Assembly: GCA_030704615.1 (NCBI GenBank)
Contig: CM060731.1
Location: 7,440,001 to 7,504,000, forward strand
From: Takakia lepidozioides
Lineage: Eukaryota > Plantae > Bryophyta
Direction: 5' to 3'
Length of the DNA stretch: 64,000 nucleotides
In this document: positions 1,736 through 55,982 of the stretch, piece by piece
Layout of the letters: each line of letters opens with the position of its first letter
Numbering within the stretch: position 1 is the first letter of the stretch
Made by a program: the position numbers and the translations under genes
The notes under the pieces: model-generated
What the model saw: the letters and a program-made list of their open reading frames with translations, nothing else
The model's database searches: none
Told to the model about the DNA's origin: nothing

Positions 1736-2158
1736 CACCAGCAATCGAAAGAATCACTCGGGACGGGAAATCTGGAACCTGAATGGGTTGCATTGTTCCG
1801 AAACAACATTGCGGCCAGTCTTGATGAGCACAACTTGGTTGTCTGACCGTTTTAACTAACAGTCCTGGCACTTGTCAGTGCGAACGTTCCTGTCTGCACC
1901 GAGAATACTGCTGGATCCACCCTCAGGAGAAACTGTCAGGAGATGTTATTTCGTCGCCGAATCGGCCATCATTGTCATACTTACTGGCTATGGAATCAAA
2001 CCTCCCACCTTCATGCATGTAGCTTGAAACAATACTTTCCACTTCAATGTGCGACTTCCAATCGTCGATGGACTCCGCAGATCCACTTAGATGGTGCCTG
2101 TGAGCCTTGGTCTGTCGCTATACTGAACCTCGCACTTGCCAACTCCGTGCGGTGTTCG

Positions 2159-5763: not shown

Positions 5764-6614
5764 GCTTGGCTTGCGGTCCCCATACAATGGTACGCCCATC
5801 CTTTTCGGATAGTAGAACTGTACTGCTGCCAGTACCTCAGACTCTGGCCACAGAAAGGTCCGACATATGTCTTGCCTACCAGTAACCTGTTTTGCTCGAA
5901 CTAAGATATTACTATATCGTTCACTTGTTTCCACGTGCATGTATTTTTGTATGTTGGAGGGTTCATGTTTTTCTGCTTTCCGAAAACTTGCTTTCCTCAT
6001 TCGACCTCCGACAAGGAAATGCGGCGCCGCATTTCCAAGTATCGTCGTAGGTACTGGTAGAGGCGGCCTTCGCCAACACCAAACCGCTCCGAAATTTCGC
6101 ACGTGCGAACCCTAATGCGGCACCCTATTTCCCAGTTCAGTTGCAAACCTTTCCCGCCGAATACCCGAAGAAGACAGAATTGTGAAGTACTGCAGACTGT
6201 ATTGGTGCAGACTCCATTGGTTCAATCGCGGCAAAAGGGTCAGCTTCATTCCAATGTTAAGGCATGTAAAACCGCGGAATACTCTATACAGGCCAGTATG
6301 CGACGTCCTTTTGCAGTGGTATACTGGATTTCCCGTTGCACGGTCACTTATTTCCATGAGCGGATCTAAAAAACCATGAGCGGACTTGTTACTGACGACA
6401 TATCTTCGCCGCATTACATGATCTGGAACGTCCAAAAACGGCAAGGTCAAATAAAAAACTATTATTTTAATACTTGTTTAATCTGCCGCATTTCCAAATT
6501 TGGAGGAATCCGCTCATGAAATCCGCGTATCTTAGACTTCGGCTCACCGCTCATGCGGCTCATGCGGCTCATGGCTCATGGCTCATGGTTTCTGCTCATG
6601 AAATAGTAAACCTC

Positions 6615-8402
6615 CTCCAGCTGAGGTACTCACGGACCAAGGGAGAGAGTTCTTGGGGGAGTTTCAGGCTTTGTGTGATAAAGCTTTGATAGACCATCGT
6701 ACCACTTCTCGGGATCATCCCGAGGCCGGTGGCTTGGCAGAGAGAGTGGTTCAAACAGTGAAGAAGGGTTTGCACAAGTATTGCTTGCAAAAGAGACACC
6801 AAGGAGATTGGGATCTTTATGTACCTTGGTTAGTCATGGGCTACAGGTTTAGCAAGCAAGCATCACTTGCCTCCTTCTCACCATATTTCCTTGTCTTTGG
6901 CCGAGAGCCGGATTTGTCTGCATCTATTCCCAGGGAGGCTGCAGTAGTCCTCAACCTTGATGATCCGGATGTGTGGACACAAGCATGTGCCCAGCACGCA
7001 AAGTTGGTTCAAGAGAGTCATGCCTATGGCTTTTGAGAACCTTGCTATTGCCCAACACCGAGACACATTGAGGTATGTCACTATACGTGGAGGGGGATAT
7101 CGGCCAGGTGTTCGGCGTTTCCACCCTGGGGACTATATGTATCTGCAGCAAACAGCACCTACGACCTTGGATGTCACAGCAGGACGTGTGATTCTAAGGG
7201 TCAGGGAGGTGTTGCCTTCAGGAGTGTTGATTCTGGAGGGTCAAGATGGCATGGTATGGAAGGACCATGTGCGTAATTGTGCGCCATGTCACCTTCTACA
7301 TGTGGATGGGTGGATAGATCCCAACCTTGCAGTGGTACCTGCAGGATTGCGTTGCATGTTATGTGGGCATGCTCGTGGTGCCGCCACTATGCTGGTGTGT
7401 GATCGATGCTCAAGAAGTTGGCACATGGGATGCTTGACACCACCTCTTGAGAGGGTTCCTGATAGAGATTGGTTATGTCCACACTACTTGGGATAGTGGC
7501 AGTGGATATGACTAGTGGCAGCTAACAAGACATGTGAGGCCAAGCTCATAGGAGTCAATACCCGAGATCTCAGGCTCAAGTTCACAGGTTGCAAGACGGC
7601 GACTAACGATGGGGCAACTCTTGTACCCGTCCTCTTGATCTATCGAGTTTGAGTGTAGTAGGGATAGTGGTGGAGGACTTAGTGAGGCTATGGCCACTAT
7701 CACATCTTGTGGCTACCTGGACTTAGAGGGACCTAAGCGCCAGCTAGGGGGGCGATTGTAATGGACTAGTGGCTGCACTAGTGGTGGCTAGTGGTTGTCT
7801 AGTGGCAACCTAGTGGTGCACTAGTGGTGGACTAGTGATAGACTAGTGTTTGGTGTGCACATGTGTTGTGTGGTTTTGGACAGCGATGTAGTTGTGTAGC
7901 AATATGTATGCGCACGACAACTGTCAAGTTATTTTACCACTAGTGTGAAGTTAGCTAGGAAATAGCTAGCTTTTATATAATGACATTTGGGATTGATCCA
8001 AGTGTCAATCCAGGGGCCAATATATGTTTGGGCACTTGACGTTGTTTTCTTCATGGCAGATCGCGATGGGCTCATCTTTCTCGAGTTGAGCCTCACCGCG
8101 TCTAGCTATGGCGCCGTAGTGTGGATTCCCCATGGCGTGGGGTGCACTTGGCTCGACTTAATATATGAGTGATGTTTCCATGTGCAAGTATGTGAGTTTG
8201 AGAGGGCTTGTGTGCTTGCATCATTCTTTTCTTTATCATTGTGATGGACTAGTGGCAGCCTAGTGATGGACTAGTGGCTGCACTAGTGGTGGCTAGTGGC
8301 AGTCTTGTGGTGGACTAGTGATAGACTAGTGTTTGGTGTGCACATGTGTTGTGTGGTTTTGGACAACGATGTAGTTGTGTAGCGATATGTATGCGCACGA
8401 CA
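6615..8402 (+). mobile_element. 3' part of Ty3/gypsy family A element: integrase tail, PHD, PPT and terminal repeats A(7757-7919)-AC-B(7922-8238)-T-A(8240-8402)
   Basis: Integrase core motifs, PPT AGGGGGGCGAT ending at 7756, and two 163-bp A copies. The element ends ...GCACGACA and is followed by AAGG of LINE sequence. Confidence 0.88.
6620..7496 (+). pseudogene. Ty3 integrase C-terminal half (rve) fused to a PHD finger
   Basis: LTDQGREF...HPEAGGLAERVVQTVK...SPYFLVFGREP; PHD CMLC...LVCDRC...WHMGCLTPPL...WLCP; frameshift near 7000. Confidence 0.9.
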
Positions 8403-10249
8403 AAGGGTTCGGGCATATGAAAATAATCGGGGGGCTAGAGCCGACGCCGTAACAGTCTGTTGGGAGTTGGGTGAGGGCACTAGGAGTACTGGTAGGTAAG
8501 CCACATATTCGCTTGGTTAGTTGAGTGATGTATTTGTCTAGTACTTTGAGATCCGGTAGGGAGAAGGGAGCGGCGTGAAAAGAGTATTGGACTTGTGGCT
8601 TAAGCACAGAGCCGATGATTGATAGTTTGGGTCTAATGGAGACAGGGGATTTAAGAAGAGCCAGACTTTTGTTAGATAGCTTAGCAAGTGTGGTGGTCTT
8701 CTGCACATGCCAGGTAAATGATGGGAATAGCTGGATGCCTACGTATGTGTAAGGCTCATCGGGTCCCAAAAAGGGGAAGGGGTTGTTTGGGTAATGGATA
8801 TAGAGTTTATAATGGGAAGCAATCTCAGTTTTTGTTAATTTACTGCGGTAGGTTGTTGCGGTAACGACGCACTTATGGAGGCTAAGTTCCATGCCTGACC
8901 ATAAGTTAAAGCGGGATAACTTGCTGACTTGTCGGTTGAGGTGTTGGGGTTTGTGAGCTAGGATAGCTAGGTCGTCAGCGTATGCGGCAGCGGAGATTTC
9001 ACTGAGGGAGGTTTTATAGTGATAGCCGAGATTTCCGCGTGCTAACCATCTTAGTAGAGGTTCTAAAATAATAATTAATAGGTATGGACTGAGGGTGTCA
9101 CCCTGGATGGTACCACGTAGGATAGGAATTAGGGGGGGTAGTACCATAGTATGAGCCGGAATATTCCGTAGTGCTGTTGGTATAAATGTTGCCAATGAGT
9201 TGGATGGCATCGATGGGATAACCGAGGTTCGTCATGATTGCAAGTAGTCTGGCATGGTCTAAGGATCCGAAGGCATTTTTAAAGTCTATATACAAGAGAT
9301 AGATATCTTGTTTAGTGAGCTTGGCATCTTTGAGGGCTGAGAGGACGTATTGTATTTGACGAGTTATATGCGTGGCTCGGAAGCCCTCTTGGGGGTCACT
9401 CAGAATATGGTGTTGTTCTCCGTAATTGGATAGCAGCGTGGTCAGTGTGATGGTAAACAATTTATAGATAGTATTGGCTAGGGCTATGGGTCTGTAGTTA
9501 CCGAGGTTAGTTGGGTCGCCTTTCTTAAATAGAAAGATGGTGCGGCTATGTTTCCAAGTAGGTGGGATACGCTTGAGTTGGTAACATAGTTTGAAAAATT
9601 TGAAGAAGAGGGTATGAAGATGGGGGTTGAGCGCTTGTAATATAGCGTTAGGAATCATATCTGGTCCAGGGGCTTTTGATTTGGGTAGACCTTTAAGGCA
9701 AGAGTCATAGAGATCTAGCGTGAATAGGTCATGTATGCGGTCCGTGGGTATCCCACGTTTGTCTAATGAGAAGCCGTCGAGGTCATGCCATGGGTAATGT
9801 TTGACTTTACATAAACAGTTGGGGTGGTGGTGGTCAGGGTGTAGGCATTTTGTGATAGCGAGCGTATATGAAGCGGATGTTTGTATCCATATTTCTTTGT
9901 TGATATCAGTGGGGCTTGTCAAGAAATGGCCCAATCGATGTTTAAGGCAGTCAATTGGTGGATTGAGCGTAGGGTTAAAGATGGCTTTGTGTGCTATTTT
10001 AGGATGGTCATGTAGGAGCTGGCCAAATGAGGTGATAAACTTTTTGTGGTTATCGCTAGCTTTTTGTTTAATTATAAGATCTGCGGCTTTTTTTGCGTCT
10101 CTTCCTAGCTTGGCGAGGGCAACAACCCATTTTCGGGATGGTACTGTGGTCCATAAGAGGAGGCAAGAGGGCTTGGCATACTGGGAGAGAGTTTAGGCAA
10201 ATAATGCGGGGGTCGCGTCTCCATTCTGTGTGATGATTGTTGGATGGGG
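8403..10249 (-). mobile_element. Non-LTR retrotransposon, middle fragment (RT domain)
   Basis: KAPGPD, NYRPIAL, QEGFR, YIDFKNAF, GTIQGDTLSP and AYADD in ORFs 9098-9934 and 8326-9210. Confidence 0.95.
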
Positions 10250-12144
10250 TGTCAAGTTATTTTACCACTAGTGTGAAACTAGCTAGGAAATAGCTAGCTT
10301 TTACATATTGACATTTGGGATTGGCTCAAGTGTCAATCCAAGGGTCAAGGCAGATTTAGGCCCTGGAGTGGTTATCTTCACGGCAAGCGCGGGAGGCTCA
10401 TTTTTCTTGAGTTGAGCCTCACCGCGCCTAGCTATGGCGCCGTAGTGTGGATTCCCCATGGCGTGGGGTGCACTTGGCTTGACTTGTATTTGAGTGATGA
10501 GGTTATATATGCATGAGTTTATGCTTCAGCTTTGTGAGCTCGCATGAGCTTGTGCTTGTATTCTTCTTCGTTATCACTCGAGAAAGATCAGCTCGAGTCT
10601 GTGAGTGCCATGTTCGAGTTGTTTTGTAGCACTTGTGTTTTCATGAGAAGCGGTTCAGCCTAGAGTGCAGGGATCCGTGCATGAGCCTATCCAAAGTGGA
10701 TAGAGTGCAAAGGCGAACAGGTTGCAGGTTTGCAATGGATAGAGAGGCGGGTAGCCTATGTTGAAGAGCGGCGTTGCATAGCTCAACGCTATGGAAACCA
10801 AGTTTGGGCTTCTAGTATGAAGCGGGGGAGATGCTGGTCTCGAGTGGGTGAACTGGTGGTCGTCTTCTTCAGCTGCAGGCCAAGTTAAGGAGCTACAGCA
10901 ATGTGGAGCTGCGAGGGTGTTAGATGTAAGTCACAGTTATCGGGAGCTCCAACTTCAAGCTCATAAGGAGGTATGAGTGAAGAGAGATGGCTGATTTCTC
11001 TTGTATGCAAGCCAATGCATTTGTGGCTATGTTGAGTTGGGGGTTTCAATTTGAAACTCCAGCAGTATGAGGGCTCTTGCCATGGCAAGAGCGGGGCTGG
11101 AACAAGAGCTAAGAGGTGTGGCAAGGCCATGGAATGTGCACCTAGGGTTTCAGAGCTTGGAAAAAAGTTCTTGCACCACAAGAGGAGTGTCTTGTGGCTG
11201 GAAATGTAAACCTTAGGGTTTCAGGAGCTTGGCAAGGGCTGTGGAATGCTTAGTCTTGTCTTAGAGAGCATCAAGGAGCCAAGGAGCCAAGATAGGGGGC
11301 TGATATCTCTTATGTGAAGAGGTTGCATGTGTGGAGCATGTATTCAGCTCATTGAAGCTTCCATCTTCAAGCTTGGAGGGCAAGCAAGGAAGAGGGAAGG
11401 GCTGACTTCCCTTATGTGAGGGCAATGCATGTGTGGAGCATGCTATCAGCCTGGTGAAGGCTTGCACTTTCAGGTGTGGGAGTGCAAGAAAGGAAGGAAG
11501 GGGCTGGTTTCCCTGTAGGGCATGTGGAGCATGCTTTCAGCCTGCTGAAGCTTGTATTTTCAGGTTTGTGGGTGCAAGAAATGAAGCAAAGGAGCTGATT
11601 CTCTTATGGTGAGAGTGGGGCATGTGTGGAGCATGCCTTCAGCCCATTGAGGCTCTTGTTTTCAAGCTTTAGAGAGCTAGAACGGAAGGTCTAGGGCTGG
11701 TTTCCACTTGGAGTGAAAGAAAAGCACTTGTAGGGCCTATGTGAGTTGGGGTTTCAACTTCAAGCTTGAAGGGAGCGCAACTCTTGAAGAAGCAGGTGTA
11801 GGGGGCTGGAATAGGCTCTAAGACAAATGCTATGGCCAAGGAGAGTGCTTGAATGAGTGCTCACAAGGGCTGGGAACCAGCAGGGCTTGGTTGTTTGCCA
11901 TTGAGTTTAGTAGCGTGTTTGGGGAGGCTAAGTGAGAAAGAAGGCTTGGTTTGTGGCAACCACCTCATGGCTTAGGGCTACTAAGATGGTGTGTGGGAGC
12001 CGAAAGAGCAAGAATACCTTGCTGATTTCCTCACAACCGCCATAGCTCGGTGGAAAGAAGCCTAGAGTCCAAGAGACACAAACCTTAGCTTGGCGTGGCT
12101 AAACCCCTTGGAGAAATGGCTAAACTGCCAGAGCGGCCATGGAT

Positions 12145-13330: not shown

Positions 13331-13989
13331 ACTGGTGGACTGCCTAAGGACTGGCATGTGGTCTTGAAGGCCGAATTTTGAAGCTCGTGGAGAGCAGTTT
13401 GAGGAGTATCTTCATGATATTCCCATGGTCATGGAAGTGAGGGAAGAGATGAGAGGAAGAGTGTTGGGATGAGGGCATGCTGGGGTTAGGCATTGCTTTA
13501 GCTTCTCTTCCTCGTAGTTTCCACCCTCTCATTAGGCCAAGACCTTTCCGTAGGTGGAGGCAAGAGTCAGTCCGGGTTTGGGCTGGGGTGTCCTTGCAGG
13601 AGCAACACCATGGAGTTGTTTTTGGTGTGGGGGAGTTGTCGTTCTGATTTCTTGTGTTTGGATCCCCTCCATACCTGCATGCTTGACTGTGCGCCATGCT
13701 AGTTTTGTGTGGGCGCTTGTTTTTATAGGTGATTGGTCCGGATTTGATCACCGGCCAGTCCTAGAGCATGCTGTCGATGGTGAGGCTGGGGTGATGACCA
13801 GCCAGACCATCATTGTTTCTCCTGTGGTGAGGTTGGAGGTGATGACTAGCCAACCATAGGAGTGCTTGCGGTGGATGCAAGTACAGGTGTAGGCTATGTT
13901 AGGAACTTAGTATTCCAAACCCTAAGCCGCAACAGGTTCTCTACCCGGTTACCTTGTGGAGAGGGGGTTAGGGACATGTTCATGACCGG

Positions 13990-16743
13990 TTGAGTGTCAA
14001 CACGGAGGTGCCACTAGTTGCTAGGGACAGTGCCGGTTCGAGCACTAGCGATACTAGTGGGTACACGAGACGAGGTGTGCGGTTTAGGCCACCTTCACCT
14101 CCTGTGTCTTCTACGGAAGGTTCTTATTCGGATTGTGAATCAGGAGGACTTATACCGGCGGTGCAAGTTGTTTCTTTGCCATTGTTGTGGGACACAATGG
14201 AGGAGATGTATGGAGCTACCAAGGGGCCACGAAGGTACTCTGGGGCGGTGGGCACCATCGAGTTGGATGATTTTATCCAAGAGTTTGATAGTTGGTGTGA
14301 TTTGCAGCAAATGCGCAATCCACAACTATTTACACCTTTCATGGCATGGAAGGGGCTGTTTCAGCACCTTGAAGGGCCGCCTATGGATGATTACCATGAG
14401 TTCAAGCGGGGGCATGAGGTTGAGATCGAGAGTGGAGGATGTACTGGTCACCTGACTATGTCTCCATCATTAGGGGCACTAGAGCCACGAGGGCAGTGGC
14501 TACACCTGCCGCTGCACCGGCAGCTTCAGCAAGTAGCAGTGGGACTAGTGGGACTGGTGGTACAGTAGCTACGACGTCCACCCAAGCCACTACCGCACCA
14601 GCACTAGTACCCGTGCCTGCCTTCAACCCTGTTGTGGAGTTATTCGAAGAGTTGAGAGGGAACTACCAAGGGGTGAGGACAGAGAAGTTACGGAGCTTGC
14701 AAGAGTTCCAACGGAAGCCGACCGAGAGCTTGAGGGAGGCTTTCACTCGCATGAGGTGCTTGATAAATGTAACCCAAGGGGTTACGGAATCTCAGGCAGT
14801 CCAATTCTGGTATGGGATATTGGACAAGGAGCTGAGGAGAAGGGTGCGGGATGCAACTCTCCTACAAGCGGCCCAAACCCACCTTAGCAAATGTATTTTG
14901 CTGGCAGAGCGGATAGAGCTCAACATGGTGGAGGAACGAGTGGTCATGGTGGGATTTGCTTAGGAGACACCACGGGGGTAGTGGTGCTCCTAGCCAACCA
15001 CTACCTCAACGTGCTCAAGGCAACAAGGGGGCTCAGGTGAAGCTCAGGGAAGGGCAGAGAGGACCTCAGATGCAGGGGTCTCTCCCTTCATTTGCTGGCC
15101 AACAACAGGCGGATGTGGTGTGCTGGACATGTGGAGGACCCCATGTCAAGAAGGATTGCCCAGAGGGAGGCAAAGGGCCGGCACATGCACAGCCTGCACA
15201 GTTGCAGTGTGGGCATTGTGGCAAGCACGGGCATGGAGAGGCCCAGTGTTATGGTTTGCATCCTGAGTTGCACCCAAGCCAGTTCCAAGGGAACAATGGT
15301 GGCCGGGGGCGAGGTGGAGCAGCCCAGAGAGGACGAGGTGGCCAGCCACGAGGTGCAGGCCAAGGGCAAGCTCAACATGGCCAATGACGCGGAGGTCAGG
15401 GTGTTGACCAAGGCATGGCCAACCGGCTTCAGCAGCTAGAGCAGAGGCTCGCTGCCATGGCTACAGCTCAGGTGGTACCGGCTCTAAGGCCGGATGGTCC
15501 ACCTCCTGCTCCTGAGGGAGGAGATATGGGAGGCATGGGATTCATGTGTGGAGCAGCACTACCACTAGTGCAGGTGGAGTCTGCTACAGCCGTGACTCGA
15601 GGAGCAACATGAGTTCCTGAGCCACGAGGTGCAGAGGTGGAGTTGGATCCACAGCGTGGGGAGGCAAGCCGTCAGGCGAGGCTTCCTCAGTCATTCACAT
15701 TGGCGGAGACAGTGTCGACGCCATCCATGGCACCTAGTTCTCGCCCGACTATTACGAGGCGGAGGTTACTATGTCATTGGGGAGAGCTACACGGGTAGCA
15801 CCACTACCTAGTGTTGCCAAGGCTACGGCAGCTAGTGTGCTGCTAGGAGCGGCCACATCTGTGTGCCAGGCTCCATTGTTCTTGGCTACCATGATTGCGA
15901 CGCCGGGGGTAAGACCAGCTGAGGTGTTCAGGCTGGCAGCTACACTCTGTGAGAGTGGGGAGGTTACTTCATCTTCTGCGGAGATAGTGGGAGGTGTAGT
16001 GCCGGAGGGATCCTCGGATTTGAGGGTCAAGATTGCCATGGCGGCGCCATGGCAAGCTGCAGCTGCCAGGTTGATGGAGCTGCCAGCTAGGCCAGCCATT
16101 GAGCGCGCCATGGTGACACCTGGAGTTGTCATGTTAGACAACCAGGATGACATTTTCTATTTGAGTGGACCGGCAGGCAAGAGGTACCGACCACTGCGGG
16201 TCTTGTTGGACTCGGGAGCTCAGCCATTGATGCTGGACAGAGCTACTATTGCAGGCTTGGGCCTCACGGAGGCGGATATGGAGCCTTGTCCTTTCCAGAT
16301 ACAGACGTCTCTGGGAGGATTGGAGCAGGCTCGGGGCATGACACGGCGTGAGTTGGCTATCAGACTATGGCCGGATCACCCTACAGATGGCTCAATGATG
16401 CGAGCCAAGGCCATTGTAATAGACGCGGTCTCATACGATGTCCTGGCTGGTGGGCAGAGTGTTGTACCCCATGGGCTTCACCCTGGATTTTTGGGAGGAG
16501 TCAGCTTCCTATAGGCCTGCATGGCAGTCAGGGGAGGGCCGACATGTGCAGCTCCATGTGACGTTCATAGGAGGAGTTGCGGTTGCCCAGCGAGGCAAGA
16601 TGCCGACACTAGCAGCATTCACAGCGGCAGTGAGTTGGCCTAGAGAGTTGCTTGAGGGCAACGCTCATTCAGAGGATGTGCCACCTCCGGGAGAGCAGGA
16701 TGACATGTATGGTATGGCGGAGTTGCCTACCATGGTTGCTTAG
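13990..16743 (+). pseudogene. gag (two zinc knuckles) plus aspartic protease, frameshifted
   Basis: PRRYSG...DDFIQEF; FQRKPTESLREAFTRM; CWTCGGPHVKKDC and CGHCGKHGHGEAQC; protease motif VLLDSGA. Confidence 0.9.
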
Positions 16744-16920
16744 ACTCCATTGTGGGGCACGAGCAAGGATTTGCAGCGGGATGCTGATCAACGGGTGCAA
16801 CAAGCCTGGGTGGAGGCTTTTGTACCATCAGGAGAGGAGGAGAGTGCGGGGATTGCACCAGGACCACCTCAGTTGTCTCCATTGGACACCACACCTATTG
16901 TGTGGCAGTATCCGGATGAA

Positions 16921-17875
16921 GGCATTTGTCTTCTGGACTTGTTTGGCGGGATCAGCACCGGATTGGCTGTTGTGTTACAGGCAGGTGTACGAGTTTGGCG
17001 TTACCTGTATGTGGAGAGGGATGAGACTGCACAACTCATTTCACTTCGCCATATTGCTCAGTTGGTGCAGCGGTACCCTGAGTTGTTGCCGGTGTCTGCA
17101 GTTCGTGGATATCAGCAGGCCTTGCCAGCAGACATTTCGTTGCTGGGGGCGCAGGATTTGGAGCGGGTTGGCTCCATTGATCTGGTAGTGGCAGGATGGC
17201 CCTGCCAAGGGCATTCATCAGCTGGGTATGGCAATGGATTGCAAGACTCGAGGTCGGGTCTGTTTTGGGAGATGGTGCGGGTTTTGCGCCACTTGCAGAT
17301 TCATCAAGCTGTATCTCCAGCATACATCTTGGAGAATGTGCCACTGATGGGCGATTCTCGGGCCAGGGTGATGGCCAGTGTGCATCAAGTCCAGTCGTGG
17401 CTTGGGTCAGCAGTGTTGCTAGATGCAGCTACAGTGGGGTCATGGGCTCATCGTCCACGGCTATGGTGGACTAACTTGATGCCACCCGCACTGCTCAAGC
17501 GTGCATTTGATGGGTGGCAGCGGCCAGCACATCTCACAGTGGATAGCATTCTGGACACAGGGAGGCAGTCTCAGCGTGTGAGACACGATGACCGTTCGCC
17601 TTTGGCAGTGGTCAACAAGGTGGGTCAACCACGAGCAGCATTACCTACACTGCTAAGTTTCCCAGGATCGCATGCTTTCAGGGATAGTGGACCTGGCCTC
17701 TTGTGGGATGCTCAGTTGCAGCAGTTAGTGGAGCCTAATGCTAACAAGCGTGAGTGGACAATGGGTTTTACCACTGGTACCACAGCGGTGTTGTCTCTTT
17801 CTGAGGCATCACGTTGTCAAGTGTTGGGGCAAGCAATGGATCTCAATTGCTTGACCTGGATTATCAGCTTGGCTA
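16921..17875 (+). CDS. DNMT3-like C5 cytosine methyltransferase domain inside the retrotransposon polyprotein (uninterrupted frame)
   Basis: Motif I LDLFGG, II YVE, IV AGWPCQ (PCQ at 17200-17208), VI ILENV, VIII AHRPRLWWTNL, IX/X MGF...LGQAM. Confidence 0.93.
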
Positions 17876-18259
17876 TGGTGAGCAACGCAGAGTGCGGAGA
17901 GTACACTTCCCTCGATGGTCTCTCTGCCTACCGAGACGGTACAGGCAGTGAGGTGGGGGTGAGCATGTGAGGACCACGGGGTGCATGCATCTGGCACACG
18001 TGGGAGGTGCTCGAGGTTCAGAGGGGAGTTGGCAGCCAAGGTGGCGATGAAAGATGAGGTTGGGGATTTTCTCGGGTGGAGGAAAGTCCTTGAGGATGAG
18101 ATGATGGGCAAGATGAGGCCTTGTCACTGACTGAGCAGGTAGGGAGTACTGCTCAAGAGGTTGCAACATAGCAACCACTGGACGCGTCCTCGACCTCTAA
18201 GCCCACTGGACTTAGGGTTGCAGTTACGGAGGACAATTGGGAGCCTGACATTGGACCCA

Positions 18260-19993
18260 TTGTCACCGGAGGAGAGAGACGACGTATACGGCAGTTCCTG
18301 AGGGCTTATAGGAATTGCTTGCCTTCAGTTTGAAGGACTTGGGACACGGAAGGGTCAAGAGATCCATATTGAGTTGGCCACTGACACGCCAATCTTTCGG
18401 AGACCCTATAGATACAGTGACATGGAGGGGTCTTTGATTCAGATGAGGACTCAAGATCTCTGGGAGGCTGGTTTGGTGGAGCTCTTGATGGAGAGTATGC
18501 TTCAGCCACAGTGATGCCAGCCAAGAAGGATGTCTATGGCAATGGACGGAGAGACGTATGTGCGGTGATTACCGGCCTGTAAATCGTCAGACCAAGTCGA
18601 TAAGTATGCCATGCCAACAAGAGGAGATCTTTGATGCCATCGGGCATGCTAAGGTCTTTAGCACTTTGGATTTACGATCGGATGTTACCAGTTGCCAATC
18701 AAGGAGGCGGAACAAGCAGAAGACGGCATTCTGGGGGATCAATGAGCATGTCAAGGATTGCCTATATCAGTGGCCGGTTCTTACCATGTGGGCTTCTTTA
18801 AGAATGCTCCTGCAGAGTTCAAAGAGGTCATGGATAGGACTAGCAGGGGTGTGGACTTTGCTCGGTGCTACATAGATGACACATCATCATCTTTAGTGTT
18901 ACGATGGAGGAGCTGGAGAGACACTTCAGGTGGTTATTGGAGCGCTTAAGAAGCGACGGATTGAAGTTGCATCCGGGGAAGTGCAAGTTTTTCCACAACC
19001 AGATTGGTATCTGTCACCTGATATATCCTAGAGGATTGGGGGTATACAGCAGACTAAGGTAGAGGCCATTGCCAAATTCCACGCCCCACGGATGTGAGCC
19101 GAGTTCGAGCTTTCATGGGGTTGGCCAATACTAGTGACGGATTGTCAAGGGATTTAGTACCATTGCAAAGGCTCTAACCAAGCTGACCAAGGTGGACCAG
19201 AGTGGCAGTGGGAAGATGAGCAGAGGAACGCGCTTTTCAAGAGCTCAGGGCAGGTTGACCTCGGCGCCTATCCTGAGACGACCTATCAGGGCGCGTCCCT
19301 TTCAGCTGCATACGGATTGGAGCATGATGGGGCTTGGAGCGGTCCTCACCAGGTGGATGATGAGGGAAGAGAGTTGTAGTGGCTTATGCTAGCCGCTTCG
19401 AACAACGCTGCAGAGGCTAAGTACAGCTCATATGAGGGAGAATGCTTAGCTGCAATGTGGGCCGTGGCACACTTCAGGTGCTATCTATACGGCAATCTTT
19501 TCACCCTTGTCATGGCTCACCAACCACTCAAGTGGTTGATGGAGTCAGACAAGCTTACGGGGAAGCTTGCACGGTGGGCACTCATACTCCGGAGTATGAC
19601 GTTCAGGTTGTGCATCGACCGGGTTTGGTCAATCGGGATGCGGATGGATTGAGTCGCAATCCATGCATGAGCCAGCAGGATGACACTGGAGCTCGGTGGC
19701 ATGGTGAGATAGACAAGGAGATGGTGCAGGGATGGCACGCATCTGCATTTTTGTGTATCTTGGCATCGGGAGGTCAGGTTGGACCTACAACATGGATGGC
19801 TGTAGACGGAGGACCCTGAGGCTATCGATGAGCCAGGTGGTGCCAGAGATATACATGAGGATTCGGCTGTGTTGGACTGCATCCGCACGGGAGACACGGC
19901 AGCCACTGTGACTGCCAGGGAGAGGGATCGGATCCTGCAACGAGCCAGAGGTTCAAGTGGGAGGGGATACACCTACTTCGAGTGTGGGAGGAT
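18260..19993 (+). pseudogene. RT, RNase H and integrase N-terminus, heavily frameshifted
   Basis: RMCGDYRPVN, FSTLDL, KTAF, NAPAEF, YIDD, LHTDWS, YSSYEGECLA, HQPLKWL, NRDADGLSR. Confidence 0.9.
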
Positions 19994-20999
19994 ATTGGGA
20001 ATTCATTTGGTTCCATGTGCCAAGTGAGGTGAAGAACCTCACTTGGGACGTGGGGAGTCCACGTGAGACATAGGCAGGCTCATCTTCTTCTAGTCGAGCC
20101 TCTCGAGGCCTTTTTCGCCGCCATAGCTCTAGTACTTGAGATGGAGAGTGGGTGAGATCTGTATGGTGGAGTCCTTTAGCAAAGGTGCCATTGGCTTGAC
20201 TTATATAACGTGATAGAGTGGGTTCACCTCTTGTCACCATTTCCGTATCACTAGAAGAAGACCTGACTGACATCGATGGTGCAAGGTGTTAGAATAGTGA
20301 GAATTGTGTGGAGGAGAGCTTGATAGATAGCTCTTAAGTTAAAAGGTGATGCAGGGTTTGTAAGAAGAAAGTCTTGTGGTGTGTATGTACAAGAAGAGGT
20401 CTTCAAGGAGAGCCCCATTGAAAAGTTTGAGAGCTTGTGAAAAAAACTCTTTGTTCTGCAAGTGTTGCAGGGTTTGAGGAGTTCAAGAAGAGCTGGGTGT
20501 TGTTAAGGAAGCAAGCGGTGCATGTGTGGAGCATGGTTTCAGCTTGTGGGAGTCTTCAACTTCAAGCTTACAAGAGCTATGAGTAGAGGTAGACATCTGA
20601 TTTCTCTTTGGGGCAGAATAGTGTATTTGTAGAGCATGCTTTGAGTTGGGGTTTCAATCCCAAGCTTGGGAAGAGCATGTCTATGGAAGTGGCAAGTGCA
20701 GGGCTGGATTAGGAGCTCTAAGAGGTGCACTATGGCCATGGAAGGAAACACTATGAGTGCATGCAATGGCTAGAAGAGGGTATGCCATAGAAAGCTCAAT
20801 AGCTTGTTCTATGCTTGTTTCAATAAGTTCCATAGAGAAAGAGAGCTTGTTGTGTGGCAAATAGCTTACTCAGGGAGTTAGAGGCACTCTTGGTGGTCTA
20901 TTGATGCTCAAGAAACCAAGAACAACACCTCTGGTTGCTCCATAGAAGCCATAGCTTGTTGCAGCAATCGCAGAGGCAAAGCGGCGCAAACCCTAGCTT

Positions 21000-22902: not shown

Positions 22903-25900
22903 GTGCCACCAGTTGCTGAGGAGAGTACCGGTACGAGCACCAGCGATACTAGTGGGTATACAAGACGAGGTGTGCGGTTTAGGCCAACTTCACCTTCAGT
23001 GTCTTCTAAGGAAGGTTCAGACTCGGAGGTAGGAGGATTCTCGCCGAGGGTACAAGCCATTTCCGTGCCATTGTTGTGGGATACGATGGAGGAAATGTAT
23101 GGAGCTACTAAGGGGCCACGTCGGTACTCTGGAGCTGTGGGCACCATCGAGCTTGATGATTTCATACAAGAGTTTGATAGTTGGTGTGATTTGCAGCAGA
23201 TGCACAATCCACAACTGTTTACGCCTTTTATGGCGTGGAAGGGGCTGTTTTAGCACCTTGAGGGGCCGCCTATGGATGACTATCATGAGTTTAGGCGGGG
23301 AAATGAGGTGGAGATTAAGGAGTAGCGATCCTGACTATGTCTCCATCACTAGAGGCACAAGGGCAACGGTGACACCAGCAGCGACACCAACATCCCCAAC
23401 TGCAAGCACTAGTAGTGGGACAAGTAAAGATGGAGCTGGGAAATCCACTCAAGCTCCTGCTGCAGCACCAGCACCCGTGCCTGACTTTAACCCAGTTGTG
23501 GAGTTCTTCGAGGAGTTGAAGAGAAACTACCAGGGGATAAAGACGGAGAAATTGCGGAGCTTGCAAGAGTTCCAGCGCAAGCCTACTGAGAGTTTGAGGG
23601 AGGCTTACACGCGCATGAGGCGATTGATAAATGTAACCCAAGGGGTTACGGAAGCTCAAGCAGTCCAATTCTGGTATGGGATATTGGACAAGGAGCTGAG
23701 GAGAAGGGTGCGAGATGCAACTCTCCTACAAGTGGACCAACCCACCTTAGCAAACGTGTTTTTGCTGGCAGAGCGGATAGAGCTCAATATGGTGGAGGAG
23801 TGAGTGGTCATGGTGGGGTTTGGTAAGGAGACACAACGAAGCGGGGCTCCTAGCCAACAACAACCACTACCCCAATGTGCTCAAGGCAACAAGGGGGCTC
23901 AGGTAAAGCCCAGGGAAGGACAGAGATGATCTCAATTGCAGAGGTCACTTCCTTCATTCTCAGGCCAACAATAGTCGGGTGACATGTTGGGATTGTGGAG
24001 GACCCCATGTTAAGAGAGATTGCCCGGAGAGAGGCAAAGGGCCGGCACAGGCACAGCCTATACAACTACAGTGTGGGCATTGTGGCAAGTATGGGCATGA
24101 AGAGGCCCATTGTTATGACTTGCATCCTGAGCTACGGCCAGGCCAGTTCCAAGGGAACAATGGTGACCGAGGACGTGACAATGTAGTCCAGAGAGGTAGA
24201 GGAGGCAGAGGTCGTGGTGGAGGTCGTAACCAAAACCAAGGAGCACAGGGTCAAGGTCAAGGTCATGACCAAAGCATGGTGGATAGGCTTGCCCAGCTAG
24301 AGCAACGTCTTGCTACCATGGCCACTACTCATGTTGCGCCAGCTCCAAGGCCTGAGGTTCAAGTCCCACCTGCACAACCTCCTATGCCTAGGGAAGACCA
24401 GATTGGTATGGGCTTCATGTGTGGAGCCGCACTTGCAGGACCATTGCATGTGGACTCTGTAGCTATTGTCACTCGAGCAGCAACGCGTGCTCCTGAGCCA
24501 AGAGGAGCACATGTGGATTTTGATCCACAAAGAGGGGAAGCAAGTCAACAGACAAGGCTTCCACAGTCTTTCACATTGGCTGAGACAGTGCCAACTACGC
24601 CATCGATGGTACCCGCTCGCCCAAGTGTGTCCGAGGTAGAGCCACGAGTGCCAGTGGGGAGAATTGGTGTGGTTCGGGAAATGCCAGTGGGTGGTGCTGC
24701 AAAGCAAGGTGCAGCCAGTACATTGTTGGGGGCGGCTACGGAAATTTGCCACGCTCCATTGTTTTCTGCCATGACCATTGCAATGCCGGGGATTCGGCCA
24801 GCTGTTGTGTTCAGACTAGCAGCTAGACTCTGTGAGAGTGGTGATGCATCGGCACTATCTGCGGGGATAGCGGATAGTGCATGGATGCCCTGGACTCAAG
24901 GGTGAAGACAGCCACAGCTGCACCATGGCAAGCGGCAGTTGCAAGGTTGCAGGAGTTGCCAGCTAGACCAGCCATTGAGCGTAGTATGGTGACTTCTGGG
25001 GTAGTCCTGGTGGACAATCAGGATGATATGTTTTAGTTGGGTGGCCCAGCCGGGAGGAGGTTTAGACCACTGCGGGTCTTGTTGGACTCGGGAGCACAGC
25101 CATTGATGTTGGGAAGAGCAGCAATTGCAGGCTTGGGCCTTACAAAGGCGGATTTGGAGCCTTGTCCTTTCCAAATTCAAACATCTTTGGGCGGTTCAGA
25201 GAAGACACGAGGGATTATACGCCATGAGCTCTTCATTTGATTACAGCCGGATCATCCTACGGACGGCTCAGTCATGAGAGCTAAAGCTAGTGTTACGGAC
25301 GCGATGTCCTATGATGTGTTTGTTGGTGGGGCGGTGTTATACCCCATGGGATTCACTCTGGACTTTTGGAAGGAAACGACATCCTACAGGCCGGAATGGC
25401 AGTCAGGAGATGGCCGACGTGCACTGCTCCCAGTGCGGTTTATTGGGAATGTAGCAGTGGATCATAGGAACATGATGCCCACATTGGCTGCATTCTCAGG
25501 GGTGGTGGCTTGGGGTGGTGAGCTCTTGGAGGGCAATAGCCATGCAAATGATAGGCCATCACCTGATGAGGACAAACAATTGGCATACAAGGCTGATTTG
25601 CTTCCTCATGTGCCTGTGCATATTCCACTGTGGGGTACGGTTGGGAATTTGCATCGAGTAGCAGGCGAGTGTGTGCACCAAGCATGGCAGGAGGCCTTTC
25701 CATTGATGAGTGAGGGGAGTTCAGTGACATCACCTGGACCTCCTGAGTTAGCTCCTTTGGACACAGTGCCCATTACCTGGCAACCATCTGACTCAGGGAT
25801 TTGTTTGCTAGACCTGTTTGGAGGCATGAATACTGGGCTTGCAGGAGTGTTGCAAGCAGGGATTAAAGTACGCAAGTACTTGTATGTGGAGAAGGATGAG

Positions 25901-28900
25901 ATAGCTCGGCGTATTTCTATGCGCCACATCGCCTTGCTCACACACCAGTATCCTGAGTTGTTGTCTCTCTCAGCAATTCAAGGGTATCAAAAGGCTTTGC
26001 CAGCAGACATTACCTTGCTGGGGGCGGATGATTTGGACCGGCATGGTTCCATTGACTTGGTGATAGCTGGATGGCCTTGCCAATGACACTCTCCCGCAGG
26101 TCATGGGAATGGCTTGCATGATGCACGATTGCATTTGTTTTGGGAGATGTTGCGAGTTTTGCGGGACTTGCAGACGAGGCAAGTGCAACCTCTAGGCTAT
26201 ATCTTGGAGAATGTTCCTCTTATGGGGGATTTTCGGGCCAGGGTTATGGCCAGTGTGCATCAAGTGCGGTCTTGGATTGGATCGGCGGTGCTATTGGATG
26301 CAGTAGCGGTGGGATCACGCGCGCATCGACCTCGATTGTGGTGGACCAATCTTGCACCACCAGAGCTGCTCAAGAGAGCATACGATTCCATTCAACGGCC
26401 ACCCAATCTCGCGGTTGAGGGCATTTTGGACCAAGGGAGGCAACCACAGAGAGTGCGACATGATGATCGTCCACCTCTAACAGTGGTCAATCGAGTGGGG
26501 CAACCACGTGCGGCCTTGCCTACACTCATGAGCTTTCCCTTGTCTCATGCTTTCCAAGACAATGGTCCTGGGTTGATTTGGGATAGTGTGCTACAACAAT
26601 TGGTGGAGCCCAATGCGGATGAGCGAGAGCGGGCAATGGGATTTGCCACCGGCACTACAGATGTGTCAGCTCTGTCAGAGGCATCATGCTGCCAAGTGTT
26701 GGGTCAAGCAATGGATCTAAATTGCTTGACATGGGTCATTGGCTTGTGCATGGCTGAGCAACGGAGATTGCAAGCATTGATGGCTACTTCTGCACTCCCA
26801 TTGGATAGTGCATCCTCCCTACGAACTGGGATGGTTGAGGCAGTGAGTGGGGGCGAGCATAAGATCATGGGTTGCAAACACCCATGGCAAATGTGGGATG
26901 ATATACGCAAAGAGAGAGTCATTGGATCTCTCAAGCAGCAGTATGAGGAGTGGGGAGAGCCATGGACTGAGGATCAGTTGGAGGCCAAGGTGGCCAAGGT
27001 TTTTGAAGAGGTTGAGAATGTTTCTTGCTCAGAGGATGTTCTCAAGGTGGCTATGGCGGAGCAAGTGGAGACTACGCCACAGTCAGATTGGGCGGACAAG
27101 GCCCAAGATGTTGCTATCTAGCAACCAAAGGATTCGTCTTCGACCTCCAAGCCTGGTGTACCCAAGGTTGCAGTCACTGAGGACAATTAGGAACCAGATG
27201 TTGGACCTACAGTCACCGGAGGAGAGAGACGGAGGATCCAGCAGTTTCTAAGGGCTTATAGAAATTGCTTTGCCTTCGGTTTGAAGGATTTGGGGAGTTT
27301 GAAGGGTCGGGAGATTCGTATTGATTTGGCAAGTGACACACCAATCTTTCGAAGGCCCTACCGGTATAGTGACATGGAGAGGTCATTGATCTAGTCACGG
27401 ACTATGGAGTTGTTTGAAGCTGGATTGGTGGAGTTGTCAGGCGGGGAGTATGCGTCGGCAACGGTGATGCCAGCTAAGAAGGATATCTATGGCAATTGGA
27501 CAGAAAGAAGGATGTGTGGGGACTATTGTCCTGTGAACCGTCAGACTAAGTCCTATAGATATGCCAAGCCAACTCCAGAGGAGATCTTTGATGCTATTGG
27601 GCATGCAAAGGTGTTTAGCACATTGGACTTGCGATCCGGTTACCACCAGTTGCCAATCAAAGAGGCTGACAAGCAAAAGACGGCATTCTGGGGGATTGAC
27701 CAACACGGGAAGGATTGTTTGTACCAATGGCGGTTCTTACCGTTTGGGTTGAAGAATGCTCCTGCAGAGTTTCAGAGGGTCATGGATAGGATTCTCGCGG
27801 GGCTAGACTTCGCCCGGTGCTACAGTGACGACATCATCGTCTTTAGTGCTACGGTTGATGAGCATACGGTTGAGACACCTTCAGGTGGTGTTTGAGCGCT
27901 TGAGAGCGCACGGGTTGAAACTGCACCCCGGAAAGTGCAAGTTCTTCCACAATCAGATTGAGTATATGGGCCACATGATATACCCTGGAGGATTGGGTGT
28001 TCAATAGACAAAGGTAGAGGCCATTGCATGCATTCCACGTCCCATGGATGTGAGCAGAGTTCGTGCTTTCATGGGATTGGCAAACTACTATCGACGGTTT
28101 GTCAAGGGATTTAGTAGCATTGCAAAGGCTCTTACCAAGTTGACCAAGGTGGGTCAAGATCGGCAGTGGGAGGAGGAGCAAGAGAAAGCCTTTGAGGAAC
28201 TCAATGCTCGATTGACTTCTGCACCTATTTTGAGGCGGCCTATTCGGGGGCGGCCTTTCTAGCTACATACGGATTGGAGTATGCTGGGGATTGGAGCAGT
28301 GCTCACACAGGTGGATGATGAGGGAAGAGAGTTCGTAGTGGCATATGCTAGCCGCTCGAACAATGATGCCGATGCGAAGTATAGTTCCTATGAAGGGGAG
28401 TGTCTAGCTGCGGTATGGGCAGTGGCACATTTCAGATGCTACCTCTATGGCAATCTCTTCACCCTTGTCACGGATCACCAACCATTGAAGTGGTTGATGG
28501 AGTCAGACAAGCTTACAGGGAAGCTTGCACGGTGGGCACTTATGCTTCAAGAGTACGACTTCCAGGTGGTGCATCGAGCCGGTATTGTCAATCGGAATGC
28601 AGATGGATTGAGTCGTAATCCATGCACAAGCGAGCATGATGATACTGGAGCTCGGTGGCATGGTGAGATAGATGAGGAGATGGTGCCAGGATGGCATGCA
28701 TCGACCTTTTTGTGCATTCTAGCAATGGGAGCTCAAGCTGGTCCATCCCATGCGATTGGTCATATAGATAGCATGCATGACGATCCAGAGACTAGTGAGG
28801 AGTTTGGTGGTGCTAAGGATATGCATGAAGATGAAGCAGTGTTGGCATACCTTCGTACCGGAGAGATAGCAGCCAGTGTGACTACTAATGAGAAGAATCG

Positions 28901-29816
28901 GGTCCTACAACGAGGCAAGAGGTTCAAGTGGTATGGGACTCACCTACTCCGGGTATGGGAGGATGAACGAGTGAGGATTGTGTCTCATCCAACACAACGA
29001 GCGCGATTGGTACGCCATGCCCACGAGGAGTTGGGACATTTTGGGGTGCGGCGCACTCATAGTTTGCTGCAAGGGTAGTATTGGTGGCGGGGCATGCATA
29101 CGGATATGCAGCAGTTAGTGGCAAGGACACCTAGGAGATTGGGACCTTCAATTGCCTTGGCTAGCTATGGGCTATAGGTTCAGCAAACAAGCTTCACTTG
29201 CCTCCTTCTCACCTTACTTTCTTCTCTTCGGCCGAGAGCCGGATTTGCCTGCATCTATTCATAGGGAGGCTGCAGTAGTTCTCAACCTTGATGATCCAGA
29301 TGTGTGGTCACAAGCATGTGCCCAGCGGGCAGAGCTGTTCAAGAGAGTCATGCCTATGGCTTTTGAGAACCTTGCTATTGCCCAACACCGAGACACATTG
29401 AGGTACGCTACTATACGTGAGAGGGGATATCGGCCAAATGTTCGGCGTTTCCACCCTGGGAACCTACGACCTTGGATGTCACAGCAAGACGTGTGATTCT
29501 AAGGGTCAGGGAGGTGTTGCCTTCAGGAGTGTTGATTCTGAAGGGTCGAGATAGCATGGTATGGAAGGACCATGTGCGCAATTGTGCGTCATGTCACCTT
29601 CCACATGTGGATGGGAGGATAGATCCCAACCTTGCAGTGGTACCTGCAGGGTTGCATTGCATGCTATGTGGGCATGCTGGTGGCACCGCAACCATGTTGG
29701 TGTATGACAAATGCTCAAGGGGGTGGCACACGAGATGCTTGACACCGCCACTTGAGGAGGTTCCTATCGGAGAATGGTTGTGTCCACGATGCCTTGGACA
29801 GAGGTGGTGGGCATGA
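22903..29816 (+). pseudogene. Family B polyprotein remnant gag-PR-DNMT-RT-RH-IN-PHD
   Basis: Zinc knuckles, VLLDSGA, DNMT motifs, YSDD, RNase H, HEELGHFG and PHD. Many TAG/TGA stops. The integrase core is deleted at ~29123. Confidence 0.92.
25796..26745 (+). pseudogene. Second DNMT3-like domain (stop codon right after PCQ)
   Basis: LDLFGG, AGWPCQ* (TGA at 26084-26086), ILENV, AHRPRLWWTNL, ERERAMGF...LGQAM. Confidence 0.92.
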
Positions 29817-32134
29817 CAATGGTGAGGCGGACAAATGATCCAAGGTCTAGCTAGTGGGGCTTCAATGCCATGGATACTCAACTGAAGATCATGGATTGCA
29901 TAAAGCATGATGAAGGCGACTAACGATGGGGCTATGTTTGCACCCGGCCTCTTGATCTATCGACTTCAAGTGTTGGGACTTGTGCGATTGAAGACCAAGT
30001 GATGATCTTATTGGGGTGGATACTTGCAAGCTATCCGGTGTTAGAGGGAGCTAATCACCAGCTAGGGGGGCGATTGTGGCGTGGCTTTCTAGGACTATAT
30101 GCTAGGAAGTGTGGTTGGACAGCGATGTATGTTGTGGCATGATGCTTAGGTGCACGACAGTTGTCATGGTTTTGTTTGTGATTAGTTAGAAATAGTTATT
30201 TCTAGCTAATTAGGACATTACACATTTATATTTGTATTTTGTTGGCATTGGGACTTCATTTGGTTCCATGTGCCAAGTGAGGTGGTGAACCTCACTTGGG
30301 ACGTGGGGAGGATGCCCCGAGCCTGCTCTGATCCTCCCAGAGATGTCTATATCTGGAAAGGGCACGGCTCCATATCCGCCTCCGTGAGGCCCAAGCCTGC
30401 AATAGCAGCTCTACCCAGCATCAATGGCTGAGCTCCTGAGTCCAGCAAGACTCGTAGTGGCCGGTACCTCTTGCCTGCCGGTCCACTCAAACAGAAAATG
30501 TCATCTTGGTTGTCTAACATGTCAACTCCAGGTGTCACCATGGCGCGCTCAATGGCTGGCCTAGCTGGCAGCTCCATCAACCTGGCAGCTGCAGCTTGCC
30601 ATGGCGCCGCCGTGGCAGTCTTGACCCTCACATCCGAGGATCCCTCCGGCACTACACCTTCCACTATCTCCGCAGAAGATGAAGTAACCTCCCCACTCTC
30701 ACAGAGTGTAGCTGCCAGCCTGAACACCTCAGCTGGTCTTACCCCCGGCGTCGCAATCATGGTAGCCGAGAACAATAGAGCCTGACACACAGATGTGGCC
30801 GCCCCCAGCAGCACACTAGCTGCCATAGCCTTGGCAACACTAGGTAGTGGTGCTGCCCGTATAGCTCTCCCCAATGGCATAGTAACCTCCGCCTCAGTAA
30901 CAGTCGGGCGAGAACTAGGTGCCATAGATGGCGTCGACACCATCTCCGCCAATGTAAATGACTGAGGAAGCCTGGCCTGACGGATTGCCTCCCCACGCTA
31001 TGGATCCAACTCCACCTCCGCACCCCGTGGCTTAGGAACTCGTGCTGCTCCTCGAGTCACTGCCGTAGGTGACCCCACTTGCACTAGTGGTAGTCCTGCC
31101 CCGCACATAGTGGTAGTGGTAGTGTTGCCCGGCACTAGTGGTAGTGGTGCCCCACCCACAGTGGTAGTGGTAGTGGCACCCCTCACCTACGGCACATCAC
31201 GGCCACTGTTCCCTGCATGCCCTAGAACTCCCAACGAGTTCCAATGCGTTCCCGGACGTTCCCACACATTCCCGAGCTCTCCCCCAGTTGGGGTTTGCTC
31301 CTGCACCTGCTGCCGACGAGCTATGGCTTCTACGGAGCCATCAGCCCCGTCGCCCTCCACTCTTGAGCTCTCACGGCCCACTAGAAGCACCCCCAACTCA
31401 ACAAGTAAGCAACATGCTGCCCAACAAGCTCCATTTCTTCATGAAGCTCACAAAAAATGAATATGAAAATACACACATTTACAAACTTGGTGCACATGCA
31501 CTTCTCATGCATATCCCCTAGCTCTAGGACGTCTCGCTGCTGCCCTTCCAGCCCCGCTCTTGCCACTCCAAGAGCACTTACACTGCTGAGTTTCAGATTG
31601 AAACTCCAACTCAGCACATGCTTCACAAGTGCACTGATTTGCACACAAGAGGGACCAGCCCCCTCTCTTCACTCATACCTCTTCATGAGCTTGGAGCTGA
31701 AGCAGTGTAGCTACGGCGTGAGCCCAGCCCCGTGAGCCTGGGAGCTGAGCTCACGCTTCAAGGAAGCGTGAGCGGCACAAATGTGCTGGAGAAGCAGGCC
31801 CTATAGGCGAGGATTGCAGGAAGAGTACCTATTACTGTGGACAAACGTGGACAAAACAAAGGGGCCACCATGCACCATGTCTGCACAAAAAGAGGAATAT
31901 GAACATATGGCAGATTTGAGCTCAGAATGATTGTCACATTCAATTCACAGATAGACACCTGTTTGTGCCCCCCTGGTTCCGCAAATAAAATGTATGTGGT
32001 TGTCCTACATGCAAAGACTCCACACGATAAGCTGGAAACCAGCACGGGAAGTGGGCATGGCTCGTTTTTGTTCACACAGAATCTGGCAGAGCCCCACGGC
32101 AGGTGTCCCGCTGCAGAAGAGTGATGACCTCTCC

Positions 32135-34250: not shown

Positions 34251-34269
34251 TGCCAAGGGTAACTACTAA

Positions 34270-37990: not shown

Positions 37991-38131
37991 CTGGTTTTTT
38001 GTTTGTAAATCAGCTTCCTTCTTGTTCCTCTTCTTGGTGGTTCTCGGATGGAGTTGCATAAGTCGATCAAGTGAATATGTAGGTGCCTGGTTCTCAAGCT
38101 TCTTAGATCCTTCTGGATGTCCATTTCGCAG

Positions 38132-53500: not shown

Positions 53501-53504
53501 TCGC

Positions 53505-55721: not shown

Positions 55722-55982
55722 AGACTCGTCTTCTTCTAGTCGAGCCTCCCGAGGCCTCTCTCGTCGCCATAGCTCTAGTACTTGAGATGGAGAGTGGGTG
55801 AGGTGTGTATGGTGAAGTCTTTTAGCAAAGGTGCCATTGGCTTGACTTATATAACGTGATAGAGTGGGTTCACCTCTTTTCACCATTTCCGTATCATTGT
55901 GGCGTGGCTTTCTAGGACTATATGCTAGGAAGTGTGGTTGGACAACGATGTATGTTGTGGCACGATGCTTAGGTGCACGACA
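55722..55982 (+). repeat. Family B terminal repeats: 3' part of B (to 55896), T, complete A (55898-55982)
   Basis: Matches 20078-20250 and 30075-30159. Ends GCACGACA and LINE DNA follows. Confidence 0.92.

Follow-up and report, generated by a model that had tools for sequence, protein, structure and literature searches.

Covarying complementarity at the LTR end points to Tf1-like self-priming in split-repeat Gypsy elements of Takakia lepidozioides

Tf1-like self-priming is the likely mechanism at the primer-binding site (PBS) found at 20250 of the Takakia lepidozioides DNA analysed here, a stretch of 64,000 nucleotides that we call the window. The sequence-only reading had proposed that the transcript primes its own reverse transcription. 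This is supported by covariation between families, by pairing that lies exactly at the LTR end, by TATA boxes in two related families and by RNA folding. The feature itself is real, and it probably represents a known priming mechanism in a new, structurally odd clade. The paired sites sit in decayed Ty3/gypsy retrotransposons related to KnitGypsy-Dnmt3. Two families, A and B, are present in the window and all of their copies are dead (Table 1).

Pfam and tblastn identified gag, protease, C5-methyltransferase, RT, RNase H, integrase with an H2C2 finger and a C-terminal PHD finger, all of them broken. The methyltransferase (PF00145, 16744-17970) lies between protease and RT, the same order as in the Klebsormidium nitens protein P0031. 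The rve domain of the integrase was matched weakly in the window (E 0.005), together with H2C2, and strongly in intact relatives. Among solved structures, the best match of the RT was Ty3 RT. The nearest named relatives of the methyltransferase are proteins of Marchantia (up to 67%), Sphagnum and K. nitens. The K. nitens protein KFL_009030040 matches the window methyltransferase and RT at 43%, whilst Marchantia proteins are closer to the window proteins, at 58-67%. Taken by themselves, these similarities suggest a land plant without seeds. For an intact member of the group, the nearest RT-RNase H relatives among the matches listed are mostly PHD-bearing and several are green-algal, with proteins of Chlamydomonas, Haematococcus and Tetrabaena among them; no methyltransferase was found in the Chlamydomonas protein P0154. 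A chromodomain occurs in 1 of the 120 relatives among the matches listed, and the window elements have a PHD finger in its place. Since the PHD finger is present and the chromodomain absent, these are not Tf1-type chromoviruses, and filing them with Tf1/Tcn1 was rejected on domains. Filing with DIRS/PAT elements was likewise rejected on domains.

Table 1. Positions in the window of the retrotransposon features discussed in the text (P, predicted self-primer).
Feature	Position	Strand	Remark
Integrase core and PHD finger, 3' half of split family A element	6602..7496	+	
Polypurine tract, family A	7742..7755	+	
3' end, family A	7756..8402	+	A1 7756-7919, 2-nt spacer, B2 7922-8238 (P 8074-8086), A2 8239-8402
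Target-site duplication AAGG after A2	8403..8406	+	
5' repeat B, family A	10250..10576	+	Begins TGTC; LINE sequence immediately before
Primer site of the 10250 copy, family A	10400..10412	+	Two C>T changes
PBS, family A	10576..10588	+	
Broken polyprotein to RNase H, family A	13972..19993	+	C5-methyltransferase at 16744-17970
5' repeat B, family B	19994..20250	+	First ~85 nt missing; abuts neighbour element's truncated pol
Predicted self-primer (P) in repeat B, family B	20083..20094	+	13 nt from 20082 in other copies
GGCTTGACT motif	20193..20201	+	Predicted second-helix partner of bases at/just after primer 3' end
PBS, family B	20250..20261	+	20250 is the LTR's last base
Broken polyprotein, family B	23033..29816	+	Gag, protease, C5-methyltransferase, RT, RNase H, integrase zinc finger (core deleted), PHD
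Polypurine tract, family B	30060..30073	+	Same motif in L004, L010, L013, L025, L019
Repeat A, family B	30074..30159	+	
A-to-B junction GACA-GT-TGTC	30156..30165	.	Predicted integrase attachment palindrome
3' repeat B, family B	30162..30310	+	Truncated
PBS, family A	40295..40307	-	
5' repeat B1 of split element	40307..40623	-	P 40471-40459 in loop of strong hairpin
Target-site duplication AAGG before B1	40624..40627	-	
3' end fragment, family B	55722..55982	+	Part of B (P 55728-55740), B-to-A junction 55896/55897, terminal A

In family B, ACTAGAAGAAGA at 20250-20261 (+) is the exact reverse complement, over 12 nt, of 20083-20094. The family A PBS, ACTCGAGAAAGAT, is read at 10576-10588 and 40295-40307 (minus strand), and the family A primer site, ATCTTTCTCGAGT, at 8074-8086 and 40459-40471 (minus strand). 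Each of the four coordinate pairs given earlier checks out as an exact reverse complement, and the accompanying statement that no TGG follows B was borne out at the window PBSs. The letters at 8074-8086 were correctly reported. They belong, however, to a 3' copy of B, and what comes next there is A rather than a PBS. The true partner of the 10576 PBS is 10400-10412, where two C-to-T changes give G-U pairs. In family A it is the minus-strand pair, 40471-40459 with 40307-40295, that is intact. The spacing of about 165 nt claimed for both families is accurate for two pairs (167 and 164 nt), whilst the 10400/10576 pair is 176 nt apart. Pairing extends to 13 nt in the family B copy at 55728-55740. 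Base 20082 is A in the window and G in nearly all contig depth across four runs. The B-to-A junctions at 8238 and 55896 place the LTR end at a CA whose final A is also the base at which pairing begins.

Dinucleotide shuffles of B reached the observed length in 2 of 2000 cases for family B and in 0 of 2000 for each of four other families. Within the window, 12-nt pairing was found at 9 of 7528 non-tandem positions, two of the nine being the true sites, and at 64 of 5000 positions once palindromic tandem arrays were included. Chance was rejected as the source of the pairing.

Covariation over more subfamilies, the check that the sequence-only reading had called for, was examined in metagenome contigs. 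The scan gave 80 loci, of which 45 were examined and L046-L080 were excluded for their weak methyltransferase matches. Three added families had a locatable PBS: family M, L019 and L042, with RT identities to the window's RT of 71-76%, 72% and 40%, respectively. In all three the pairing is kept with other letters. Exact pairing was thus present in all five families with a located LTR end and PBS, over 13 nt in A, 12 in B, 17 in M, 16 in L019 and 17 in L042. Each family's own primer matched its own PBS at 12 of 12 positions, compared with 1-9 of 12 for the primers of other families. In an alignment of 8 copies from 4 families, from which L042 was left out because it is too distant, 97% of cells were paired against 39-46% in slid controls. 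Double changes occurred in 8 of the 13 pairs, bearing out the claim that sequences differ between families while pairing stays. None of 500 shuffles had as many cells paired, the 8 rows representing 4 families and the shuffles ignoring relatedness. RNAalifold, unprompted, returned the same helix.

The LTR end is fixed independently by B-to-A junctions in families A, B and M. In L019 and L042 the PBS was located by searching for the inverted repeat, and their LTR ends are therefore not independent evidence; the contigs of both seem to have collapsed repeats. L042 is also without the ACT start and without the second-helix motif described below. Among the eight family M loci with a 5' B, five keep at least 11 consecutive pairs counting G-U. 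The other three show no pairing: the PBS is missing in L001, the primer is deleted in L003 and the primer pattern was not found in L009. L024 and L025 seem to represent a single insertion, as do L015 and L017, so the members of each pair do not count as independent. The distant loci L031-L037, L039 and L045 yielded no PBS-flanked LTR end. L022 and L037 stop short of the PBS, and an 11-nt inverted repeat in L035 was not counted as it lies at an assembly duplication. Some family M copies carry a second 11-nt PBS-pairing site in U5, 83 nt before the PBS (L003 6371, L024 6385, L025 1933). The methyltransferase does not keep one place across the collection: comparison of L031-L037 with L001-L030 and L042 showed it after RNase H and ahead of the integrase in some relatives, and preceding RT in others.

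The divergence of the PBS bears on whether a host tRNA, or a tRNA half, primes these elements, with self-pairing merely shielding the PBS. Priming by tRNAs prevails among plant LTR elements, and tRNA halves are described as the primers of some copia lineages (PMC6317226), but such priming is very improbable here. TGG, needed for pairing with the CCA end, begins no PBS of the five families, and tRNA 3'-end priming was rejected. The five PBS sequences differ at most positions, each following its own LTR, and thus five different tRNA fragments would be needed. No tRNA gene for comparison was found in the window or in the 24 of 80 loci scanned, and Rfam gave no match.

Self-priming from the 5' end requires consideration of where the RNA starts. 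A TATA box usually lies about 30 nt from the start. TATAAA occurs 43 nt before the primer 3' end in family M and TATAAT 42 nt before it in L019, so that in both families the box is 26 nt ahead of the primer site. At the usual spacing, the start is therefore predicted to fall inside the paired stretch or at its 5' end in M and L019. No TATA box was found at the expected place in families A and B of the window or in L042. For RNA starting at the primer, the predicted helix probability is 0.66-0.99. Adding 10 upstream bases lowers this from 0.66 to 0.01 in family A, where the helix is predicted only for RNA starting within about 5 nt of the primer site, and 30 bases lower it to 0.01 in L019. Families B, M and L042 behave differently: their primer helix is still predicted when 60 nt of upstream RNA is included, and folding therefore does not require their RNA to begin at the primer. 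A start at the primer is thus fitted by TATA spacing in two of the five families and demanded by folding in two of the five.

Alternatively, the RNA may start well upstream, making the paired stretch internal. It would then either be nicked into a primer or serve as a leader structure (in packaging, dimer formation or translation) with priming achieved in another way. The lack of a TATA box near the site in families A and B is consistent with this, as are the survival of the helix with upstream sequence in three of five families and the 17-mer of family M, whose helix can be extended upstream by a few A-U/G-U pairs. By contrast, the loss of the helix on adding upstream bases in family A and L019, and the TATA spacing in two families, point to a start at the primer. 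One end of the helix also coincides exactly with the LTR end, a constraint that a helix with a solely structural role would not require. An upstream start is therefore unlikely.

Further structure was predicted around the primer. A local hairpin using upstream bases covers the primer in four of the five families (z -2.3 to -5.5), in folding windows picked after inspecting the sequence; for the family B copy at 20083 the hairpin is not significant (z -0.7). Bases at or just after the primer 3' end are predicted to form a second helix with a motif whose GCTYGAC core is present in U5 in four of the five families. It resembles the stem structure that is reportedly required in Tf1. A bacterial promoter scan of 30160-30310, ill-suited to a plant, gave nothing. 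One truncated family B copy starts at 55722, 6 nt before its primer site and near the predicted RNA start, although this is a single case.

The repeats of these elements are split, with the order B-PBS-internal-PPT-A-B-A. Inserted copies read flank-B-PBS-internal-PPT-A-NN-B-A-flank, as seen at 7756-8402 of the window and in L025. Because the polypurine tract (PPT) directly precedes A and the PBS directly follows B, A and B together make up a normal LTR. Its U3 is predicted to be A plus the first half of B, with R and U5 in the second half. The elements end TGTC...GACA and make a 4-bp target duplication. The A-to-B junction reads GACA-NN-TGTC in both window families and in L004, L019, L022, L025, L037 and L042. 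By frequency alone GACANNTGTC does not stand out, since the window has 4 matches and 6 of 100 shuffles had as many; it carries weight because of its position.

Several observations place the insertion ends at this inner junction. All eight family M loci with a full 5' B begin TGTC after sequence other than A, L024 and L025 sharing one flank. In three runs from one sample, some 40 contigs per run exit the A end at 30159 into unlike sequence; among the contigs listed for the fourth run there was none of this kind. L025 is flanked on both sides by AAGG (1675-1678 and 10806-10809). Two window positions, the A end at 8402 and the B start at 40623, mark either end of a single insertion into a LINE: both flanks carry AAGG, the two B copies are identical at 307 of 317 positions, and the right flank is matched by 28 of 56 LINE relatives, in most of which the match picks up at 40625, the point at which that to the left flank stops. 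A one-base frame difference in a C run was noted in this split insertion. The halves of the split family A element are separated by an inversion or a misassembly. The LINE occupies 8403-10249 (-) and 40624 to about 43800 (+), split by the retrotransposon plus a ~33 kb inversion or misassembly. Both of the duplications found are AAGG whilst other flanks differ, reflecting a weak target preference or chance.

Some copies depart from this layout. The 3' ends of L010 (11895-12018) and L013 (6934-7057) read PPT-A-flank, without the second B and A, a form arising from recombination, a one-LTR circle or assembly collapse. At the B-to-A junction the PBS-side and PPT-side ends are joined; L025 has a single extra base there. 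The junction in L015/L017, one rearranged locus, keeps 9-10 nt of the PBS together with a further 6-7 bases. Among the copies examined there was no B-A-B-PBS end.

DIRS elements carry an internal complementary region. The complementarity described here might similarly act on DNA, helping to close the circle implied by the split repeats, whose order is that of PAT/DIRS-type elements (PMC5890265, Fig. 4c legend). We regard such a role as barely credible. The partner lies in mid-B at the predicted start rather than at the element end, the PPT and PBS are at their normal places and G-U-type changes are tolerated. In addition, no tyrosine recombinase (PF00589) was found in the 61 of 206 ORFs scanned, in 29 long ORFs or in the 120 relatives listed.

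A published screen for self-priming asks for at least 10 bp of complementarity lying 0-5 bp from the LTR (PMC6317226), and all five families fall within this range with 12-17 nt. Tf1 RNA pairs its first 11 bases with the PBS and is cut by RNase H between bases 11 and 12 (PMC7175516). Tf2 is described as controlled by a choice of start site that omits the primer (PMC5341516), and Tf1 cDNA as often retaining PBS/PPT tails and untemplated bases (PMC11042837).

By analogy, transcription of these elements would start 150-175 nt into B, at the primer site or no more than a few bases from it; in the four families whose B is complete, the site lies at this distance. The RNA 5' end would fold onto the PBS, pairing over 12-17 nt of the element's own LTR. 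A second short helix beside the primer 3' end may set the cut, and RNase H would free a primer of 11-17 nt. RNA with bases upstream of the primer, whether in the 3' repeat copy or from an upstream start, would tend to fold these bases over the primer and so conceal it. The product of reverse transcription would be a standard A-B...A-B cDNA, ligation of its ends would produce the B-to-A junction, and integrase would open the inner GACA-NN-TGTC junction, only at its 5' copy. That the true insertion ends are this inner junction with a 4-bp duplication suggests that the ragged ends of self-primed cDNA are joined and never used by integrase. We tentatively propose that self-priming and circle integration go together in a large clade of PHD-finger Gypsy elements of the green lineage. 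In this scheme, which is plausible but slightly short of favoured, ragged ends are ligated to give the variable B-to-A junction, a DDE integrase uses the clean palindrome inside the LTR and a hairpin hides the 3' primer copy.

Other features of the window were also recorded. The 3' part of the LINE (42216-42899) matches at 35% a region of a relative that has a weak PCIF1_WW hit, below the curated cut-off; the window ORF here has no Pfam match, and the region is a possible methyltransferase-like cargo judging by sequence. A fragment of a separate chromovirus integrase, with SH3_Tf2-1 and a chromodomain, lies at 55042-55721 (-). Tandem arrays occur at 258-1739 (units of about 53), 12144-13318 (10/41-52), 21455-22104 (67 nt), 34190-38044 (117+139) and 52324-53509 (285-395 nt), with palindromes inside the 53-nt and 117/139-nt units. 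Four long overlapping ORFs at 1856-5659 (+) have no Pfam match, and a G-patch ORF lies at 49652-50695 (-).

Tf1/Sushi elements are an established case of self-priming, which has also been predicted for plant Tcn1 and TAR elements and accounted for 12% of elements in one survey (PMC6317226), whose text contains neither 'PHD' nor 'methyltransferase'. De Mendoza et al. (2018) named KnitGypsy-Dnmt3 and noted its DIRS-like repeats (PMC5890265). The main text of that paper does not contain 'priming', 'primer binding' or 'PBS', and the sections drawn on here give no mechanism for the split repeats. Likewise, self-priming is not reported in the available portion of a preprint on methyltransferase-bearing retrotransposons (10.64898/2026.05.21.726589). 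We found no published report of self-priming or of a repeat mechanism for the PHD-type clade, although Repbase, theses, subscription journals or supplementary figures may hold one. That self-priming probably extends to a Gypsy clade with no chromodomain, one that ranges from green algae to liverworts and mosses, is by itself a modest gain. The anatomy matters more: the split repeats of KnitGypsy-Dnmt3 would be an ordinary LTR opened in the middle, and the ends of reverse transcription would thus differ from those of insertion. Integration through the circle junction was proposed for retroviruses and later rejected (PMC11054761). If our proposal is true, these would be natural LTR elements integrating through a junction, a route long rejected for retroviruses, and the case could be tested if an active algal relative shares the layout.

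Tf1/Tf2 of Schizosaccharomyces pombe, Tf1/Sushi elements and plant Tcn1 all share with the window elements a PBS beside the 5' LTR that is not tRNA-like and is complementary to a short stretch of the LTR (PMC7175516, PMC6317226, PMC4600332). The Ty3/gypsy RT is also common to Tf1/Sushi and our elements. Unlike Tf1/Tcn1, the window elements have a C-terminal PHD finger and a C5-methyltransferase and no chromodomain. Their pairing spans 12-17 nt compared with 11 in Tf1, their self-priming is a prediction from sequence, and inserted copies read B-internal-A-B-A whilst those of Tf1 read LTR-internal-LTR.

The window elements are of the same kind as KnitGypsy-Dnmt3 of K. nitens, described as having a Dnmt3-type methyltransferase in a Gypsy Pol and DIRS-like split repeats alongside Gypsy domains (PMC5890265); the corresponding B...A-B-A arrangement is seen in the window and in L025. 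Both have a DDE integrase and not a tyrosine recombinase, in line with the 4-bp duplications found here. A Gypsy polyprotein with a PHD finger is likewise a feature of green-algal elements such as Gypsy-7a_cRei (PMC9940879) and, reportedly, REM1. In the TAR lineage of Ty1/copia (Houba, Osr-1), self-priming is predicted from the same complementarity (PMC6317226). TAR belongs to another superfamily than the Gypsy elements of the window, indicating that self-priming arose more than once. PAT/DIRS-type elements (A-coding-B-A-B; PMC5890265) resemble the window elements in repeat order. However, PAT/DIRS elements use a tyrosine recombinase, whilst the window elements have a DDE integrase, TG...CA ends and a 4-bp duplication.
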